Below are positions 11,464 to 53,530 of a stretch of DNA of 64,000 nt, one piece after another. Numbering within the stretch: the first letter of the stretch is position 1; the number at the start of each line of letters is the position of its first letter. Made by a program: the position numbers and the translations under genes. The stretch is from Escherichia coli (GTDB lineage: Bacteria > Pseudomonadota > Gammaproteobacteria > Enterobacterales > Enterobacteriaceae), in NCBI RefSeq assembly GCF_013122565.1, contig NZ_CP053258.1; one strand, written 5' to 3'. Below the pieces are notes generated by a model, which worked only from the letters and a program-made list of their open reading frames with translations, ran no database searches and was not told the DNA's origin.

Positions 11464-13311
11464 TCAGATTGACAGCTTCTTGACGCGCTTGCCGCCATAT
11501 AGCAGGTTTACGATGGCACGCGTACCGACAATCGCGGTAAACATCGACGTCGCCACACCGATACCGGTAGTAATCGCGAACCCTTTAATTGCCCCGGTAC
11601 CCACTGCGTACAGGATGATGACTTTAATCAGCGTGGTGATGTTCGCATCGAAGATAGAACTGAATGCGCCACGATAACCTTCATCAATTGCCTGTTGAAC
11701 AGTACGTCCGTTGCTCAACTCTTCTTTAATACGTTCGTTGATCAGTACGTTCGCATCGACCGCCACCGCAAGGGTTAAGACGATACCCGCGATACCAGGC
11801 ATACTCAGCGTTGCGCCTGGCAACAGCGACATAATGCCGACAATCAAGATCAAGTTGGCAATCAGAGCACTGGTCGCAATCAGACCAAACTTCTTATAGA
11901 AGATGATCATGAACAGAATAGAAACCAGCAGACCGGCAAGGCAAGCCTCCAGCCCCTGCTCAATGTTCTGCATACCCAGAGTCGGGCCAATGGTACGTTC
12001 TTCAACAATCTGAATCGGCGCGATCAACGCACCGGCACGCAGCAGCAGTGACAGCTGACGGGCTTCGTTCGGGTTGTTGATGCCGGTGATACGGAAGCTG
12101 TTACCCAGACGAGACTGAATGTTGGCGATATTAATCACCTCTTCCTGTTTCACCAGAACCGCACGACCATTTGCATCTTTCTTACCGCTGTCTTTGTACT
12201 CCACAAACAGGGTTGCCATCGGTTTGCCGATGTTGTCCTTGGTGAAGTTAGACATGATGTTACCACCAGCGCTATCGAGCGAGATGTTAACCTGCGGCTG
12301 GTTGTACTCGTCCTGGCTGGATGTAGAGTCGGTAATATGGTCACCGGTCAGAATTACGCGTTTGTACAGCACAACCGGCTGACCTTCGCGGGTCTGTTTC
12401 ACTTCAGAGTCGCCAGGTACGCGACCGGATGCCGCTGCGGCCTGATCAACGTTAGTGTTTACCAGACGGAATTCCAGCGTTGCCGTCGCACCCAGAATCT
12501 CTTTCGCACGCGCGGTGTCCTGAATGCCTGGCAGTTCAACAACGATACGGTCAGCACCCTGACGCTGAACCACCGGCTCCGCCACGCCAAGTTGGTTTAC
12601 ACGGTTACGCAGGATATTGATGTTCTGCTGCACCGCATATTCACGCGCTTCACTCAGACGAGCATCGCTCATTACCGCACGCAGCTGGTTGCTGCCCTGG
12701 CTGCTAATCACCAGGTCCGGATGGCGCTTGCTCAGATACGCAATGGCTTCATCACGAGCTTTAGCATCGCGGAAAGTGATGCTCAGGCCGTAGTTGTTTT
12801 CTTTACGAACGGTGGTATACGGGATGCCCTTTTCGCGCAGGTCGCTGCGCAGGCTATCGATATTTTGTTCCTGGAGTTTGCCAAGCGCGGTGTCCATATC
12901 CACTTCCATCAGGAAGTGAACACCGCCACGCAGGTCAAGGCCGAGCTTCATCGGCTCAGCGTGAATAGCTGCCAGCCAGCGCGGCGTTGCCGGGGCAAGG
13001 TTAAGCGCCACGACGTACTTGTCACCCATAACGCCCATTAATGCTTCACGAGCGCGCAGTTGGGTGTCAGTGGAGTCGAAGCGCGCAAGAATAGCGCCCT
13101 CTTCCAGTGCCACAGACTTAGCAGTTATTTTTTCTTCTTGTAACGTTTTCTGGACCTGGATCAGCGTTTGCTCACTGGCGGCGACTCCGCGCGCACCAGT
13201 GATCTGAACAGCCGGATCCTCACCAAACAGGTTGGGAAGCGCATACAGCAGACCGATGACAATCACAACGATCAGCATGACGTACTTCCACAAAGGATAA
13301 CGGTTTAACAC
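11464..13311 (-). CDS. secD: protein translocase subunit SecD
   Basis: 615-aa [45 protein letters not shown]..., matching SecD. Confidence 0.95.
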
Positions 13312-13338
13312 GGCAATTCCCTTAGGGAAAAATTTTAA

Positions 13339-13671
13339 TTACAGCGCCTTCATGGTGCCTTTCGGCAGGACGGCAGCTACGAAGTCACGTTTAATAACTA
13401 CTTCAGTGGTGTCATTCAGCGCGATAGCAATGTAGCCGTTTTCCGCTACTTTGGTTACGCGACCAACCAGGCCACCGTTCGTCAGAACTTCATCACCTTT
13501 GGCAATGGAGTCCATCAGCTTTTTGTGTTCTTTGGTGCGCTTCTGCTGTGGACGCAGGATCATGAAATAGAAAATCAGACCGAATACCACCAGCATCAAA
13601 ATCAAAGACATCGGGCTACCTTGCGCCGGTGCACCCGTTGCCGCTACCGCATCAGAAATAAAAAAGCTCAT
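13339..13671 (-). CDS. yajC: Sec translocon accessory subunit YajC
   Basis: Internal start MSFFISDAVAATGAPAQGSPMSLILMLVVFGLIFYFMILRPQQKR gives 110 aa. Confidence 0.9.
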   Translation of the reverse strand: MSFFISDAVAATGAPAQGSPMSLILMLVVFGLIFYFMILRPQQKRTKEHKKLMDSIAKGDEVLTNGGLVGRVTKVAENGYIAIALNDTTEVVIKRDFVAAVLPKGTMKAL

Positions 13672-13693
13672 TAAATTTCCCTCATTATTAATA

Positions 13694-14836
<1,143 letters not shown>

Positions 14837-14876
14837 TCAGAAAAACAGTCCAACGTTTTAAACCAGCGCCGCGGAA

Positions 14877-15947
14877 TTACTCCCCGACGCGCTCATTAAT
14901 TGCCTGCGGATTGTACGTGATAAACATCGCATCACCGTAACTAAAAAAGCGATATTTCTCTTCTACCGCTGCTTTATAGGCGTTCATGGTGTGTTGATAA
15001 CCGGCAAAGGCCGAAACCAGCATAATCAGCGTCGATTCCGGCAGGTGGAAGTTTGTCACCAGCGCATCGACCACTTTGTACTGGAAGCCCGGATAGATAA
15101 AGATTTGGGTATCGTCAAAGAACGGTTCGATGAGATCGTTTTTCGCCGCCTGAGCCGCGCTTTCCAGCGAACGTACTGAGGTGGTACCAACCGCAATCAC
15201 CCGGTTACCGCGCGCTTTCGCCGCCAGTACCGCGTCTACCACATCCTGGGGTACTTCAGCGTATTCCGAGTGCATGATGTGATCTTCAATGGTGTCGACG
15301 CGTACCGGCTGGAAGGTGCCCGCACCAACGTGCAGGGTGACGAACGCCATCTCCACGCCTTTGGCGCGTAATTTTTCCAGCAAAGGTTCGTCAAAATGCA
15401 GACCAGCGGTCGGGGCTGCAACCGCGCCCGGTTTTTCGCTATAAACGGTTTGATAAAGTTCGCGGTCAGCGTCTTCGTCCGGACGGTCGATATACGGCGG
15501 CAGCGGCATATGGCCGATGCTGTTGAGAATATCCAGCACCGAGCGTTCATCATTAAATTCGACTTCAAACAGTGCGCCGTGGCGCGCGGTCATTGTTGCG
15601 TTAATACTTTCGTCATCGCCCAGCAGCAGTTCTGCGCCAGGTTTTGGCGCTTTCGAGGCGCGAATATGCGCAAGAATGCGTTTGTCGTCGAGCATCCGCT
15701 CAACCAGCACTTCAATCTTGCCGCCGCTGGCTTTACGCCCAAACAGACGCGCCGGGATCACGCGGGTATTATTAAAAACCAGAAGATCGCCGGGGTTGAG
15801 CTTATCGAGTAAATCGGTGAAAGTACCGTGCGTCAGCGCGCCCGTCGACCCGTCCAGCGACAGTAAACGACAGCTACTGCGTTCAGGCATCGGATAGTGG
15901 GCAATCAGGGATTCGGGCAATTCAAAGGAGAAATCGGTAACGCGCAT
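14877..15947 (-). CDS. queA: S-adenosylmethionine:tRNA ribosyltransferase-isomerase
   Basis: 356-aa [36 protein letters not shown]..., matching QueA. Confidence 0.95.
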
Positions 15948-16039
15948 GACACTGACTCAGACTAAAATAAGAGGCGGGTAGTCTAGTGCCGGGGCGCTCT
16001 CCCTGCAACCTTTACCCCCCTTTGGATAGAATATAATCG

Positions 16040-16621
16040 ATGAATTTTTTAGCTCACCTGCATTTAGCCCATCTCGCGGAAAGCTCGCTTTCCGGCAATT
16101 TACTGGCTGATTTCGTACGCGGAAATCCTGAAGAAAGTTTTCCGCCCGACGTCGTGGCTGGCATTCATATGCATCGGCGCATTGATGTACTAACCGACAA
16201 TCTGCCGGAAGTCCGCGAAGCACGGGAATGGTTTCGTAGTGAAACGCGCCGCGTTGCGCCTATTACCCTGGATGTCATGTGGGATCACTTTCTTTCCCGC
16301 CACTGGTCGCAGCTGTCGCCGGACTTTCCGCTACAGGAATTTGTCTGTTATGCCCGCGAGCAAGTGATGACGATTTTGCCGGACTCACCACCACGCTTTA
16401 TCAACCTGAACAACTACTTATGGTCAGAGCAGTGGCTGGTGCGCTATCGCGATATGGATTTCATCCAGAACGTGTTAAACGGCATGGCAAGCCGCCGCCC
16501 ACGTCTGGATGCCCTGCGTGACTCCTGGTACGATTTAGACGCTCATTATGCCGCCCTCGAAACCCGCTTCTGGCAGTTTTATCCGCGGATGATGGCGCAG
16601 GCGTCACGCAAGGCGCTCTGA
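16040..16621 (+). CDS. acpH: acyl carrier protein phosphodiesterase
   Basis: 193-aa [35 protein letters not shown]..., matching AcpH (YajB). Confidence 0.9.
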
Positions 16622-16732
16622 AACTTCAAACTCCGGCGTCACTATTTTTTAGCATTCGCATCCAGCGGGGCGGCATAACAACGGTAAGAAAAATATTCGC
16701 TGGAGTGATTGGCGATATCTTTAAAATTGCTT

Positions 16733-18088
16733 TCACCAACCCCCCCCGTACGTGAGTACCGTTCTGGACAACTCTCCGTTTTCATTTATATGTGGAAAAT
16801 CATATTGTGTACTGAATCGCCATACATCTTTCTTTTCTGGCTCGCTGTTCACAGAGATACGTCGATGGAAGGTCCCTCCTATAAACGTGCGCCAGAACAA
16901 TTGTTGATCAAAATCTTGTAATATCGCAGACTTGGATGCTATTTGACGTAGTAAACCTGCATACCGTGGACTGCCATTACGAGCAACATTATGCAAACCC
17001 TGACTAAAAGCATCAAACAAACAATAGGTGTGATCACTAGTGAAAAAAGGTCTTAATTTTTTTTGTTCTTCATCGCTGTAATCCAGGAGCATCTCATTGA
17101 TTTCTTCCGGTGAGAATTTTAAGACAAAATTATCCTCAGAATTTGTTTGTTTCTTGTTTTTTTCAATATTCTTCTCCTCAATGCTCTTCGCATTTTGTTT
17201 CGCAATTATTTCCTCAGTTTTTTTCTCAATTACTTCCGCAATTTTTTCCCGAGTTTTAAATTTTAAACTAACACCATCGATGTCAACCGGTGTTGTTTTC
17301 AGATCTCTCTGCGCGTCTTCCAAATTTGTCTTATAGAGTTTGTGCAGTTTATCTGCAGATACGTATCCGGATGAAGAAATCTGGTGTGTACGCATGGGGG
17401 GCTGTTCACAAAGCATCGAAGCTATATCGTCTTTAAACTCTTTTACATTAAAGTTATCGGCATTAACCTTCCTTGTTATAAACCCCGCATCGGCAATTTT
17501 CTTCTCTAATTGTTTTGTACGTTTAGAATAATAAGCGTTGTTATCATAAAACTTTTCAAGAAGGGCCCACTCCTCAAGTTGCCTTATGTGATTTTTCAAC
17601 TGTTGATGATCTATTTTATATTCATGTGTACTAGAATCATTTTGGTTGCAGGAGTTACAGATTTTTAAGCATAATTTTCCATCAGATTTATCATCTATGG
17701 TATCAGTGAAAATATAGGACACTTCAATACTCTGCCCGTTCTTATCAGTCATCTCATATGACCATTGCCCCGTTCGTTTCGCATTCTTAATGACTTCGAT
17801 CGACTCTACAGGACAACCATGAAGAATGGGCAGAATTTTATCAGGATGCTTAATGAGTAAAATTATTATATTTACAATGTTTGAAAAGAAATTTTTGCTA
17901 TTTTTTATTTCATCGATTTTTTCCGCTGAAATGTTTACTAAGTTTTCATTTCCGGAAATGAAAAGCGATTTGCCATAGGTGCTTTTTTTAAATTGTTCTT
18001 CTGTTTTAGAAAAGACATCCTCTTTAAAAGGTGGCAACTCAGCACCAGTAATAAACGGTTTCAATAAATTCGAATTTGAAATTGTCAT
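16733..18088 (-). CDS. hypothetical protein, 451 aa, AT-rich strain-specific insertion
   Basis: Long uninterrupted ORF in a markedly AT-rich segment between acpH and malZ; predicted N-terminal domain, central K/E-rich coiled-coil, and a W/F/Y-rich C-terminal domain; no motif I can assign to a family. Confidence 0.6.
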   Translation of the reverse strand: MTISNSNLLKPFITGAELPPFKEDVFSKTEEQFKKSTYGKSLFISGNENLVNISAEKIDEIKNSKNFFSNIVNIIILLIKHPDKILPILHGCPVESIEVIKNAKRTGQWSYEMTDKNGQSIEVSYIFTDTIDDKSDGKLCLKICNSCNQNDSSTHEYKIDHQQLKNHIRQLEEWALLEKFYDNNAYYSKRTKQLEKKIADAGFITRKVNADNFNVKEFKDDIASMLCEQPPMRTHQISSSGYVSADKLHKLYKTNLEDAQRDLKTTPVDIDGVSLKFKTREKIAEVIEKKTEEIIAKQNAKSIEEKNIEKNKKQTNSEDNFVLKFSPEEINEMLLDYSDEEQKKLRPFFTSDHTYCLFDAFSQGLHNVARNGSPRYAGLLRQIASKSAILQDFDQQLFWRTFIGGTFHRRISVNSEPEKKDVWRFSTQYDFPHINENGELSRTVLTYGGGW

Positions 18089-18194
18089 ATCTTTGCTCCA
18101 CTACAGGGTTATCCTGGAGCAGGTTGTACCTAACCTCTTGGGCAAAGAATACCAAAAATCGCTCATATCGATCGGGACAAATATTTAACAAACT

Positions 18195-18242
18195 CAGCCC
18201 TGACATTGAGCAGCTTTTTTGCGCTGCGTAGTGTCAGGGCTG
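18195..18242 (-). terminator. nested inverted repeat, candidate malZ terminator at the insertion boundary
   Basis: 11-bp arms CAGCCCTGACA / TGTCAGGGCTG enclosing a second hairpin GCAGC-TTTTTT-GCGCTGC; lies 3' of malZ and 5' of the 451-aa ORF. Confidence 0.4.
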
Positions 18243-18275
18243 GTGACTAACGACGTAACAAATAAAACAGATGCT

Positions 18276-20090
18276 TTAGTTCATCCATACCGTAGCCGAA
18301 ATGGCAGGCAAAGCCAGAATCCCGTCTGTCAGTTGCCCATGGCCTTCTTTGCGTTGCCATTGCACGACATTAAGAAACGGTGACGCGGGTAGCACCACTT
18401 CACAGGCCTCGCCACGGTTGATTGCCACCAGTACACGCTGTTGATTCTGCACGCGGACAAATACCACCACGTTATCTTCCGCATACAGCACCTGACAGCC
18501 ACCACGACGCAGCGCCTGACTTTTCTTACGCAGCGCAATCATTCGCTGGTACAGCGCGAATAACGCCATATCCTGCTTTTCCACCTGCCAGGGGAACGGC
18601 TTACGGCAAAACGGATCGTTTTTGCCATCCAGTCCCACTTCATCACCGTAATAAATGCACGGTACACCAGGCCAGGTGAACAGCCAGACCACCGCCAGGG
18701 GCAGGCGCGCAACATCCCGACCGAGCAACGTTTTAAATCGCGCAGTATCGTGGCTGTCGAGCTGATTAAACATACGTAATTGCTGTTGATGAGAAAGCCC
18801 TGCGCGGTAATTATCCATCCAGGCCATACAGGTTTGGGCGTCAATTTGCTGCGGATCGTAAGAGATGTCGGTATTGGCAAGAAATCCCCACAACGGGAAT
18901 GTGAAGCCGCGATAGTTCATGGCGGCATCTTCCACATCGGCCTGTAACCATTGCCGTGCATCGCCAAAATGCTCTCCAACTATATACGCTTCCGGCTGGG
19001 TTTCTTTCGCCGCTTCGGTGATCCCGGCAACGTGCTGCAAATTATTGCGCGCCCCCCCCGCTTCCCCCAGCATATGCACCACATCCAGCCGCCAGCCGTC
19101 CATATTCCACGGCGCTTTCAGCCAGTGGCGGACAATACTGTCTTCCCCGCGATAAATTTCATTCACCAGACTTTCCGACTGATAATCCAGCTTCGGCAAG
19201 CTGGCATAGCCCAGCCAGTCGAGCGCCGTGCCATCGTCACTAAACGAGTACCAGTCGCGCCAGGGCGATTCGGGGTTGTGACAAGCACCCCCCGTGCCAC
19301 GATTGTGCCTGTCAAACCAGGCATGGGAATCGCCACTGTGGTTAAACACGCCATCCAGCACCAGCCGCATTCCCAGCTGCTGCGTATTGTGGCGTAAGCG
19401 CAGCAACGCCCCATCACCGCCAAACTGCGGATCGACATGGCGATAATCCTCGGTATCGTATTTATGTACGCTGGGAGCTTTAAACACCGGATTGAGATAC
19501 AGCGCCGTCACGCCAAGTTTTTTCAGATACGGTAGTTTTTCGCTTATCCCGTCCAGATCGCCGCCATAGAACGTTGATCCGCCCGCCTGCGCCGTGACCG
19601 GTTCATCCCAGTCACGCAAGATGATCTCTTGTCCGGCTGCGTGATGGTAATAGACATGATCCTGTTCAGCTTCACGAGGAAGACTACGGGCGAAACGATC
19701 AGGGAAGATCTGATAAAAAATCTGATCCGCTGCCCATTGTGGGCCGATATCCGGTACATCGATGGCAAACTGCTCCAGTCGTGCTGGCGGCATTCGGCTG
19801 AAGCCCTGCGGTGTAAACCAACGCTGGCGATCGTGCCATAGCAATTTGAAACTATAACGCCGCCGGGGTTGTCCACTGGAGAGATCGATCGCCGCCCGCC
19901 ATGCGGTGACACCAGGCTGCGGCTGACTGCGCTGCTTATGCATCGGTACTGACATTTCTTCGTTATCGTGTTCTGTACGCAGCATAATGCGCTGCGGTGG
20001 GTCTTCGCCCGTCAGCCACAGTGTAATGAGCAGTTGATCTTTGCTTTGTTTAACAAATGGGGGCACCGGCAGGTGCCATGCATTTAACAT
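18276..20090 (-). CDS. malZ: maltodextrin glucosidase
   Basis: Track ORF starts [15 protein letters not shown]...; the second Met is used as start here, giving 604 aa; GH13 alpha-amylase family. Confidence 0.9.
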
Positions 20091-20248
20091 CATAATTCCC
20101 CTGTGATGAAAATCTGATCACCTTGCCATAGCCTAATGCAGGATCACTCATCATCTGAAGGATATTTGGGGGAGGAGGACGGGGGCGGATAACTTTCGGA
20201 ATAGCCGGATCAGGATTTCCTCCTGAACCGGCTTACAGAACGCAAGTA

Positions 20249-33472: not shown

Positions 33473-33928
33473 TTATTCGCTACGGCGGGCAATAATTTTT
33501 AGCGCAGCAATATTATGCGTTTCACGCCGTAACTGATCTAATCGCCTCATCCCTATTCGCCTGTCAGCAGCACGCAGAATATTCACTAACCCCCATTTAT
33601 CGCTGGTAAATTGTTTTGTTAACAGCTCCGCTTTTGGGGTATCAATATATTCACGCAATAAATCAGAAATTGAACAAATATCCGTCAGGTAAGGATACCA
33701 GCAAGTTTCACCGTGAAAATTACGCACTCCACCGTTACCTGCAATAAAGTCTTTCGGGTAATCCCAGATCACGTTTTTATCCAACGTGATCCAATAACGC
33801 GGTAAATCGGTGCTTCCACCATTTTGGCTGCGCATGGGATAACGGGTACAGTGAATTTGCAGGTTGATCGTTGGCGTCAGTAAGTCATAGATCTCCCGCT
33901 GTAACTTGCTCCAGGGGCGTTGTGTCAT
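33473..33928 (-). CDS. hypothetical 151-aa protein, downstream partner of the 762-aa gene
   Basis: ORF start overlaps the upstream gene stop by 4 nt (ATGA at 33925-33928), implying translational coupling; no signal peptide; W/Y-rich (WITLDKNVIWDYPKDF...CWYPYL); family not recognised. Confidence 0.6.
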   Translation of the reverse strand: MTQRPWSKLQREIYDLLTPTINLQIHCTRYPMRSQNGGSTDLPRYWITLDKNVIWDYPKDFIAGNGGVRNFHGETCWYPYLTDICSISDLLREYIDTPKAELLTKQFTSDKWGLVNILRAADRRIGMRRLDQLRRETHNIAALKIIARRSE

Positions 33929-36213
33929 TGTTTTTCCTCAAGCCGGTGACGCGCTTCACTGCGAATTTTCCGCGTTGCCCCGGTTTTCACTAAATCCCGT
34001 AACTGCGAAAGATCGGGTTGATCGACAAATAAAAGTAATGATGGATCCTCTTTTAGCCACACCGTTTTCACATCGGCAGCCAGCTGTGGATTATTAATAG
34101 CCAGCGACCGATCCTGAGACTCAGTCAATGTCGTTAACAACGACGCCGGGGTATGTGCGTTGCGCAATGCCGTTTGGCGCAAATGATCATTGCGACTTTG
34201 CAGCAATGCACGCCACCATTCATCATCTGATTTATCTTTTATCGTAGCCAGTTCCGCAAAAATATCGCTATCCTCACGGTTCCAGCGGTGTAATCCTCTT
34301 TCACTTTGTCTACGGGTGCTATTTTTCATACTGACAACAGCCAGCGCCCAGTCAGAGTTGAAGCGATACTGTTGATCGAGTTTGTTGATAATTCCGGAAG
34401 GTAAATCTTTATTATCAAATAATTGGTTACGCATTCGATAGCGGTATTCAGCGGGTAAATCAACCAGTAAATCAATGGCATTATTTAACATCTCTTCGTC
34501 AACAACACCATTATCAATCAGCGCCAGCTGTACTTCGTAGGCTTGCTCTTGATCTTCTTGCCGTTTGCTCATCATTAAATTTAATGTGCGTTGCCATAAC
34601 TGTTTCTTATATTCCAGCGGCAATAATTTATCGCGTGCCAGCTCATCCCAGACGGTGGGAACATCATGCTGAGTCAGTAGATAACTAATCACTTCCTTCG
34701 ATGTCAGATAACGCGCACCTTCGCGTAAATTGTGCACATCTTCTTTTGCCAGAGACAGTTGACGCATCTCCGGCAACGCTATCAATAACTCCTTTACGAT
34801 ATTTTTATTTTCTTTATTATCCAGATACATTTGTTCTGCGATACGTTCAATATCCTCTGTACGCAGGGTTGCTGATAGTTGGGTAATTTTTAATTCAGTA
34901 AGCGTCCGGGCTAATGCTTCACGAACTTTCAGTGACTTATCTTTACTCAACATCACTGCTTGTTGTGCGGTTAAATCTGCTCCGGTAATTCTTTCACGTA
35001 ACTCCGGGTCTTCGTTATTTATCAACTCATCGGCCACTGCAGTCGGAACCAGCCAGGCGTAATCGTAATGGCTGAGTAATGTCTTGCGCACACTGAGAAA
35101 GGGGCTATGACTTAACGACGCAACAATATCTGGAGAAAGATTATCCTGTCTGGCCTGCTCCAGCTGTACACTCTCGACGGGTACAGACATTAATTTTTTA
35201 TTCACTTCAGCAGAAATATTACTGTTTTTAATCAGCCCTCTGGCAACAGCCTCATCTTTAATTAATTCATCGGTAAGCAAATGCATCTGCTGAGCAGGCC
35301 AGGACTGCGCCATCGATTCACGCGTCTGGTCATCGGGGTGCTGTAACAGTTGCAGCATAACGACGGGTGATAAACTCTCAATATGAGTCAGAAAACGTGC
35401 CACCAGTGGATCTTGATGCTTTATTTTATTCGCAGGGAAATTATCGAGTTTCCCCGTTTCAATCCATTTTAATTTCTCATTAATTTCAGGAGCGGCTTTA
35501 TCGCGAAAAAGAGGTAAACCCTGAACGATGTTGTCTGCGACGCTATCATAGTCAGGATACGCATTGGAAATATTATCGGTTTCGATTTCAGTGTGATCAT
35601 AAAGATCAGCAGTCACCAGTGAATAGGCTTTTTGGATATTCTCATCCCAGTTATATCTTTCACCACTTTCATCTTCATTGATATAAAATTCAGCTTTGAT
35701 GACCTCAAATTGCGTTGCTTTATCGGAAACAATAATGCCTCGCGCGCTAATTCCCTTCATCACTTCAAAGTTATGATCATTGTAATCAGCATAAACTAAA
35801 CCTTTCGCTGTCATCTGTCCTTTGACATATGCGAAATCATGATTAATAAAATTATCGACAATAACATTACCTAATACAATCAGATGACCATTACCTGACA
35901 GATAATCATCATAATCGCCTGAAATCGTTAAATTACCGTTCACCACCAGTTTATTTTGATTGCTGAAGTTAGCGGGTAATGACAGGTCACCATTATGATA
36001 ATACCAGCGGATATTATCTTTTAGCATATAAGCAGCTTCCATACTATCGTCGGTTGCCGCTTTAACCACGTTGCGCTCATCTGCCGTCATAAGATGAAAG
36101 TCAGAGGTGATAAGGTCCTCGCTACTGATCCACTCTGTGGCACATGCATTGCCAGTCATAAAAATTACGACCATACAGATGACCAATATATTAATTCCAT
36201 TCATAATCTTCAC
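33925..36213 (-). CDS. hypothetical secreted repeat protein, 762 aa, AT-rich strain-specific insertion
   Basis: N-terminal Sec signal peptide (MKIMNGINILVICMVVIFMTGNACA|TEW); N-terminal region rich in NG/GN/D motifs; long alpha-helical body with recurring D/S-P-x-[LV]R...A motifs (HEAT/LRV-like). K-12 has, as I recall, only the short ykiA remnant here. Confidence 0.65.
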   Translation of the reverse strand: MKIMNGINILVICMVVIFMTGNACATEWISSEDLITSDFHLMTADERNVVKAATDDSMEAAYMLKDNIRWYYHNGDLSLPANFSNQNKLVVNGNLTISGDYDDYLSGNGHLIVLGNVIVDNFINHDFAYVKGQMTAKGLVYADYNDHNFEVMKGISARGIIVSDKATQFEVIKAEFYINEDESGERYNWDENIQKAYSLVTADLYDHTEIETDNISNAYPDYDSVADNIVQGLPLFRDKAAPEINEKLKWIETGKLDNFPANKIKHQDPLVARFLTHIESLSPVVMLQLLQHPDDQTRESMAQSWPAQQMHLLTDELIKDEAVARGLIKNSNISAEVNKKLMSVPVESVQLEQARQDNLSPDIVASLSHSPFLSVRKTLLSHYDYAWLVPTAVADELINNEDPELRERITGADLTAQQAVMLSKDKSLKVREALARTLTELKITQLSATLRTEDIERIAEQMYLDNKENKNIVKELLIALPEMRQLSLAKEDVHNLREGARYLTSKEVISYLLTQHDVPTVWDELARDKLLPLEYKKQLWQRTLNLMMSKRQEDQEQAYEVQLALIDNGVVDEEMLNNAIDLLVDLPAEYRYRMRNQLFDNKDLPSGIINKLDQQYRFNSDWALAVVSMKNSTRRQSERGLHRWNREDSDIFAELATIKDKSDDEWWRALLQSRNDHLRQTALRNAHTPASLLTTLTESQDRSLAINNPQLAADVKTVWLKEDPSLLLFVDQPDLSQLRDLVKTGATRKIRSEARHRLEEKQ

Positions 36214-50554: not shown

Positions 50555-53530
<2,976 letters not shown>

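Follow-up and report, generated by a model that had tools for sequence, protein, structure and literature searches.

Three described kinds of gene come closest to the one considered here: the EspX/EspY-type effector genes of backbone islets, the single-gene anti-phage or abortive-infection (Abi) systems, and the species-restricted ORFans of the xenogeneic AT-rich islets of enterobacteria. The gene, referred to below as the orphan, is an open reading frame (ORF) lying between acpH and malZ in a stretch of 64,000 nucleotides of Escherichia coli DNA (contig NZ_CP053258.1 of RefSeq assembly GCF_013122565.1), which is called the window; its features are collected in Table 1. Like the EspX/EspY-type genes, it is a lone AT-rich gene between core genes, has no mobility gene, occurs in O157:H7, is present or absent from strain to strain and encodes an S/T/N-rich, acid-free N-terminus; unlike them, it shows no sequence or profile similarity to effector families, and its frame is open in strains presumed to lack a type III secretion system (T3SS). 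With the single-gene anti-phage and Abi systems it shares an accessory, patchy, AT-rich, cytoplasmic, fast-evolving and often lost character, but it has no hidden Markov model (HMM) match, no effector domain, no defence-island setting and no phage or plasmid copies. The ORFans resemble it in lacking outside homologues, in a high ratio of nonsynonymous to synonymous substitution rates (dN/dS), in the label 'hypothetical protein' in every record and in GC content (that of the orphan is about 18 points below the genome). It differs from them in its unusual length (481 amino acids, aa), in a frame under clear selection, in invariant cysteines and in a conserved upstream region. The orphan was set outside these kinds because tests of family membership failed or gave no decision; judged by its distance from them, the family appears unclassifiable, and no new mechanism is claimed.

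The ORF is a real protein-coding gene, the window allele of an E. coli-restricted orphan family. The copy in O157:H7 strain Sakai is ECs_0454 (NP_308481.1), which lies between malZ (ECs_0453) and acpH (ECs_0455) and is annotated as a hypothetical protein. The reading frame is maintained by selection even as the protein evolves quickly: its dN/dS of ~0.7 is about ten times the value in the flanking genes.

Alleles were chosen by DNA similarity rather than by annotation. Selection was estimated by the pairwise Nei–Gojobori method on 12 alleles with the window frameshift (described below) repaired, using flanking genes from the same genomes; two disrupted alleles were excluded from the substitution count. 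The orphan gave dN 0.043, dS 0.057 and dN/dS 0.75, against 0.006, 0.101 and 0.06 for malZ and 0.004, 0.141 and 0.03 for acpH. When the aberrant allele of strain 88COLEC was left out, the overall ratio was 0.71, with regional values of 0.62 (N-terminal), 0.63 (middle), 2.2 (linker, 38 codons) and 0.65 (C-terminal). At least 232 substitutions were counted in the orphan, falling on the three codon positions as 80/64/88, and 60 changes were synonymous, compared with 51 expected for the same mutation types placed at random. None of the 232 substitutions was a nonsense change, against 11.2 expected (P = 8e-6), so that stops do not arise at the neutral rate of a decaying, non-functional family. Across 100 full-length database proteins 148 of the 481 columns vary, residues 1–13 are invariant and all eight cysteines are at least 99% conserved. 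The absence of stop codons together with this conservation of the cysteines argues for a functional, fast-evolving protein, whose full length matters while most of its residues are weakly constrained.

The initial annotation had recognized a single long ORF in an AT-rich segment, in agreement with the ORF call and the GC profile (0.31–0.41 across 16750–18100, about 0.50–0.58 in the flanks). By our own arithmetic, taking ~7% stops per codon at the local composition, 451 open codons would arise by chance with a probability of ~1e-15; the other frames of the segment 16733..18088 hold no ORF longer than 79 aa. The motifs HGCP and CLKICNSCNQ are both present in the translation, and the GGAG Shine–Dalgarno sequence lies 7 nt 5' of the ATG. 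The 451 aa that had been taken as the gene length are not native: orthologues are 466–493 aa long and the window copy is frameshifted.

Table 1. Position, strand and supporting evidence of the orphan, its islet and the flanking genes in the window.
Feature	Position	Strand	Basis or remark
Orphan ORF, 451 aa, 3'-truncated allele of the ECs_0454 / WP_000155944 family	16733..18088	-	ATG start
G8 homopolymer with +1 frameshift	16740..16747	-	Comparison with other alleles
Out-of-frame remnant of the native C-terminus (..ESNFKDIANHSSEYFSYRCYAAPLDANAKK*)	16642..16732	-	Frame restored on removing one G
12-nt (4-codon) periodic repeat coding the E/K/A-rich helical linker	17189..17249	-	Tandem Repeats Finder, period 12/24
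Conserved 5' region of the orphan	18089..18191	-	Sequence and allele alignment; includes GGAG at 18096..18099
Stable hairpin between malZ stop and orphan start, then AGUUUGUU	18192..18244	-	dG -31.7 kcal/mol
AT-rich islet, ~1,660 bp	16616..18275		BLAST of K-12 locus against window breaks at 16615/18276; GC profile; empty sites
acpH, core flank, convergent with the orphan	16040..16621	+	ORF list, annotation, BLAST
malZ, core flank, same strand as and upstream of the orphan	18276..20093	-	ORF list, annotation, BLAST

The distribution of the family was established from 5,426 complete RefSeq E. coli genomes. Of these, 1,125–1,127 (~21%) carry the islet at a coverage of at least 80%, its DNA there being 93.5–97.8% identical to that of the window. 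The 1,128 genomic places are all chromosomal and at the same locus, one per genome except for one genome with two. Two matches labelled 'plasmid' were rejected, the records being 4.9-Mb chromosomes, and a tblastn search of 50,697 phage records found no copy of the orphan. The carriers include O157:H7 (the orphan is in every O157:H7 record listed), O145 and many strains that come from non-clinical sources and have genomes of 4.7–5.1 Mb. The core genes at 4000..16600 of the window reach a best identity of only 98.6% among the 5,426 genomes, O157:H7 being closest; the window lineage therefore lies outside this set and may, for instance, be a Shigella or a divergent Escherichia lineage.

Relatives were sought with phmmer among 1.84 billion representative proteins, the query being the intact protein of 481 aa. 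Of 21 matches, 20 were the protein itself or fragments of it from E. coli (68–100% identity); a match to a repetitive 947-aa protein (E = 8e-4) was judged spurious. In a word-indexed search of 5.8 billion proteins the best 120 were all from E. coli or Escherichia sp., at identities of at least 88%, and no relative turned up when one genome of each GTDB species was scanned. There was no significant match in Pfam, NCBIfam, PADLOC, PHROGs or the sequences of the PDB, whether by single sequence, by profile or per domain. PADLOC-DB v2.0 returned 0 families at E <= 0.1 for the whole protein and 0 at E <= 10 for its three domain segments, NCBIfam returned no match below E = 0.005 and none to an anti-phage model, and zinc-finger profiles did not match. 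Several weak hits were taken as noise: Pfam MksE (E = 0.25), PHROG 31618 (E = 0.06), dynein roadblock in the PDB (E = 0.12) and the MXAN_5187 C-terminal domain of NCBIfam (E = 0.005, below its cut-off). The literature searched held no mention of ECs_0454. On these searches no homologue of the family can be detected beyond E. coli. The initial annotation had proposed profile searches, PADLOC models among them, and had allowed for a housekeeping enzyme; neither the whole protein nor its domains found a match, and no homology to such an enzyme appeared in the profile and sequence searches.

The acpH and malZ genes converge, and the islet occupies precisely the gap between their stop codons. In a BLAST comparison of the K-12 locus with the window, the extra ~1,660 bp stand in place of ~10 bp of K-12 and leave acpH and malZ intact. 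The two stops are 4 bp apart in K-12, and the same clean empty site was found in CFT073, IAI1 and WL297, covering phylogroups B2 (CFT073) and B1 (IAI1). The gene order queA–acpH–orphan–malZ–proY was conserved in all 13 fetched genomes, in which the orphan is annotated 'hypothetical protein' and its neighbours are housekeeping genes (acpH, queA, tgt; malZ, proY). No integrase, transposase, insertion sequence (IS) element, tRNA or flanking direct repeat was found at the islet or its boundaries, which does not fit cargo of an integrative island, an IS or transposon, or a prophage remnant. The site is binary, each genome checked carrying either the orphan or nothing; since only the orphan or a clean 4-bp gap occurs there, the junction is not a hotspot of variable cargo. 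Both the short acpH–malZ spacing given for K-12 in the initial annotation and its description of an orphan gene on an AT-rich single-gene islet without a mobility gene agree with these results.

The window copy of the orphan is frameshifted. An extra G in the homopolymer produces a premature TGA, so that the product ends in TYGGGW and the last 31 residues are lost; removal of one G from the run restores a frame of 481 codons that ends 20 bp from the acpH stop. The lost tail is among the least variable stretches of the family (two of 20 columns vary in the 100 full-length proteins) and includes H461, C465 and C470. Because this conserved Cys/His tail is removed, the window allele is most likely crippled or dead, and by comparison with its intact orthologues, whose frame is unbroken, the window copy is a probable pseudogene. 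An artefact of assembly or of homopolymer sequencing, with the window gene in truth intact at 481 aa, is a distinctly unlikely source of the frameshift. One surplus base in an 8-G run is the classic form of such an error, and the other frameshifted allele (O145 RM9872) likewise carries a homopolymer slip, from A7 to A8. Against this, an independent read assembly (Logan SRR11451224) encodes the identical 451-aa product, although the same isolate may have been sequenced, and the insertion lies among four real, lineage-specific substitutions (ATG TTC GAG GGG GTT GCT to ACG TAC GGG GGG G GTT GGT) that had lengthened the G-run from 5 to 7 and thereby make a true slip plausible; the 11 other alleles all share one sequence here. 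On the evidence of the second assembly the frameshift is probably real.

The four substitutions and the 1-nt insertion fall within ~20 nt (16737..16757, minus strand) and are unique to the window allele. From their clustering it looks as if one mutation event, possibly templated, had produced them together, as opposed to several separate changes.

Other damaged alleles were also found. In O55:H7 USDA5905 a deletion runs into malZ, and 88COLEC has, in the region of codons ~275–320, an 84-nt in-frame deletion and a divergent linker (..ELKTRRHLADIIHVKCMREKNYTTDQGFELP..) while the frame and both flanking domains are kept. The 88COLEC allele is consistent with the linker being a tolerant spacer. 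The initial annotation had named frameshifted orthologues and a non-expressed pseudogene as what would speak against it. Such copies do exist (the window and O145 RM9872 frameshifted, one O55:H7 with a deletion), but the majority of alleles are undamaged and selection acts on the open frame: full length is retained by 11 of the 13 sampled orthologues and by 100 of the 120 best database proteins.

The protein architecture was derived from alignments and from modelled secondary structure. An AlphaFold2 model of the full-length protein, based on a 16-sequence alignment, had a pLDDT (predicted local distance difference test) of 38.5; it is unusable for the fold, and the AlphaFold models were read for the layout of secondary structure only. 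An NTF2-like fold was considered for the C-terminal module, but the models are too poor for a fold to be assigned. Residues ~1–160 are predicted to form an N-terminal helical region followed by a β-hairpin and a cysteine cluster, residues 161–306 long helices ending in an E/K/A-rich stretch, and the C-terminal module an aromatic-rich α+β arrangement of about five helices and a four-stranded sheet. This bears out the three-part layout proposed in the initial annotation (a Cys/His N-terminal part, a K/E-rich linker and an aromatic-rich C-terminal part). The protein is hydrophilic (grand average of hydropathy, GRAVY, -0.64) with a maximum 19-residue hydropathy of 1.56 and no convincing transmembrane segment, and on our own reading the N-terminal sequence contains no signal peptide. 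Among the 100 full-length proteins H90, C144, C147, H167, H461, C465 and C470 are 100% conserved and C92 and C140 are 99% conserved. The length variation of the family (466–493 aa) proceeds mostly in steps of 4 aa, and the series 469, 473, 477, 481, 485, 489 and 493 aa was mapped to the linker. We infer that the E/K-rich stretch is a helical spacer of variable length, the steps corresponding to about one helical turn.

Taken as a whole, the best explanation we can offer for this real, E. coli-only, fast-evolving gene is that it encodes a conflict-type binding protein, a reading that is tentative and falls short of an even chance. A gene that occurs patchily, is lost repeatedly and combines a high dN/dS with protection of its frame resembles a conflict gene. 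The product would be soluble, with no signal peptide or transmembrane segment and no recognizable catalytic domain. Its N-terminal α/β module would carry the conserved H-G-C ... C-x3-C-x2-C cluster, which may bind metal; the long helices would follow, ending in the E/K-rich spacer that varies by 4 residues (~one helical turn), and a C-terminal α+β module would bear the second conserved His/Cys tail. Such a molecule could, without enzymatic activity, act as a binding or adaptor-type protein in a conflict-type interaction that varies between strains. The likeliest version would be an intracellular sensor aimed at phage or other mobile DNA and the next likeliest export as a type III-style substrate; the intracellular role is ranked slightly higher because the open frame is preserved in a range of strains presumed to lack a virulence T3SS, some of which have small genomes. 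The specific role so assigned, that of a binding or adaptor protein in a strain-variable conflict, is doubtful. A bolder form is rather improbable: that the orphan founds a family without relatives, a single-gene conflict module acting as an anti-phage or anti-plasmid sensor or as an exported factor (T3SS-independent or T3SS-dependent), in which two Cys/His-stabilized domains are joined by an E/K-rich 'ruler' tuned by one-turn steps.

Several observations weigh against the conflict reading. No positive evidence for a biochemical activity or a partner was found, more than 5,000 defence HMMs gave no match, no recognizable effector module (nuclease, NADase, pore or protease) was found, and no expression data were found for the orphan. 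The site is not a defence hotspot and its cargo never varies across the genomes checked. The conserved Cys/His clusters may form a metal site, as judged from their spacing and conservation. Three of 14 sampled alleles (window, O145 RM9872 and O55:H7 USDA5905) are disrupted, with 88COLEC a fourth aberrant one; these alleles, and the 79% of genomes that lack the gene, show that it is dispensable. The dS of the orphan (0.044–0.057) is below that of the flanks (0.10–0.14) and correlates weakly with it (r = 0.30), and the allele groups of the orphan are incongruent with malZ. The alleles may thus be younger than the strains and have spread by recombination, or the synonymous sites may be constrained, in which case dN/dS is possibly inflated. 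The uniformly high ratio of 0.62–0.65 in the three structured parts looks more like general relaxation than a localized arms race.

Some of these observations are equally those of a weakly selected, horizontally acquired orphan without a specific role, probably silenced by H-NS, drifting near neutrality and lost lineage by lineage, of which the window frameshift would be one step of decay. This account is possible, if on the unlikely side, and is of comparable probability to the conflict reading. It accommodates the dN/dS of ~0.7, the near-even spread of substitutions over codon positions with synonymous changes at 60 against 51 expected, the fact that ~79% of genomes lack the gene and have a clean empty site, alleles broken independently through a deletion and homopolymer slips, and a protein with no homologues, no domain and an AlphaFold pLDDT of 38.5. 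Its chief difficulty is the missing stop codons (0 of 232, with 11.2 expected); in addition, most sampled orthologues and database proteins are full length, the cysteines and the N-terminus are invariant, the C-terminal tail is conserved and the upstream regulatory region is conserved above the coding region.

A third account, that the orphan is a T3SS substrate or effector, an EspX/EspY-like backbone islet gene exported by its N-terminal signal through LEE (the locus of enterocyte effacement) or ETT2 (E. coli type III secretion system 2) and active in the host cell through its C-terminal module, is improbable. Its first 15 residues (MTISNSNLLKPFITG) are 47% S/T/N/P, compared with 23% in the rest, and include no D or E, residues 1–13 of them being invariant; the gene forms a single-gene backbone islet of ~33% GC, is found in every O157:H7 record listed and lies 14.5 kb from a similar islet (1624..3189) whose pentapeptide-repeat protein is weakly PipB2/PipB-like. 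The linker shows repeat-number polymorphism, which is common in effectors of enterohaemorrhagic E. coli (EHEC) such as EspF and TccP. However, no similarity to effector families was found in Pfam or NCBIfam, and none to the described Nle, Esp, EspX/EspY or PipB families (the only Pfam hit was MksE, as above, and NCBIfam gave none); BLASTP of the orphan against the neighbouring PipB2-like islet protein gave E = 2. Strains of poultry, dog, baboon, possum and water origin, presumed mostly LEE-negative and in part with genomes of only 4.7–4.8 Mb, retain the open frame, which counts against an effector because a T3SS-dependent gene should decay there. Some LEE-positive strains (O145 RM9872 and O55:H7 USDA5905) carry a disrupted copy. 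Effectors do not typically have eight conserved cysteines or a possible metal site. The two functions suggested in the initial annotation gained no positive evidence from these results. A secreted effector has no effector-family homology behind it, N-terminal composition being the sole hint. An anti-phage or Abi role found no component HMM match in PADLOC-DB v2.0 or NCBIfam, and neither a defence island, a variable hotspot nor a mobile element was seen in the 13 loci and 50,697 phage records.

Public records have listed the gene itself as a hypothetical protein from the sequencing of the O157:H7 genomes onwards. New here are the frameshift in the window copy, the strict species restriction, the binary and immobile locus, the selection pattern and the stepwise spacer. 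If the function is real, a 55-kDa protein in every listed O157:H7 genome and about one-fifth of E. coli lies outside annotation, defence and effector catalogues. A frame that is strongly protected while the protein sequence is barely so and the spacer length varies is an uncommon pattern, which makes the orphan a test case for the retention of species-restricted orphans; on present evidence it is one of many uncharacterized accessory genes.

Between the malZ stop codon and the orphan ATG 176 of 194 alignment columns are invariant in 13 alleles, so that this region is more conserved than the orphan coding region. The hairpin within it has z = -4.1, with none of 200 shuffles folding as well; its outer stem is identical in all 13 alleles and its inner stem is mismatched in one. 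In strains with the islet it probably serves as the terminator of malZ. An Rfam search gave no match inside the islet. The sequence TGgTATTCT at 18146..18154, spotted by eye, is a possible extended -10 promoter element of the orphan; a consensus promoter scan found no site upstream of the orphan, including at this position. The islet itself brings a terminator-like structure for malZ that K-12, with 4 bp between the malZ and acpH stops, does not have.

Three other genes were noted in the window. A second single-gene AT-rich islet (1624..3189, plus strand, about 32% GC) encodes a 521-aa pentapeptide-repeat protein and lies between a yajO-like gene (419..1393) and thiL (3860..4837). It is missing from IAI1, in which pgpA and yajO are adjacent. 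The protein gave weak matches, far below the cut-off, to the T3SS effectors PipB2 and PipB, and by sequence the gene looks like an EspX-type backbone effector gene. At 33925..36213 (minus strand) there is an unassigned accessory ORF of 762 aa (41–43% GC) with no NCBIfam match at E <= 1e-5. Finally, an AT-rich stretch (35–44% GC) at 50567..53530 (minus strand) encodes a 987-aa autotransporter with a TIGR01414 β-barrel (E = 2e-86) and a BafA-like C-terminus.

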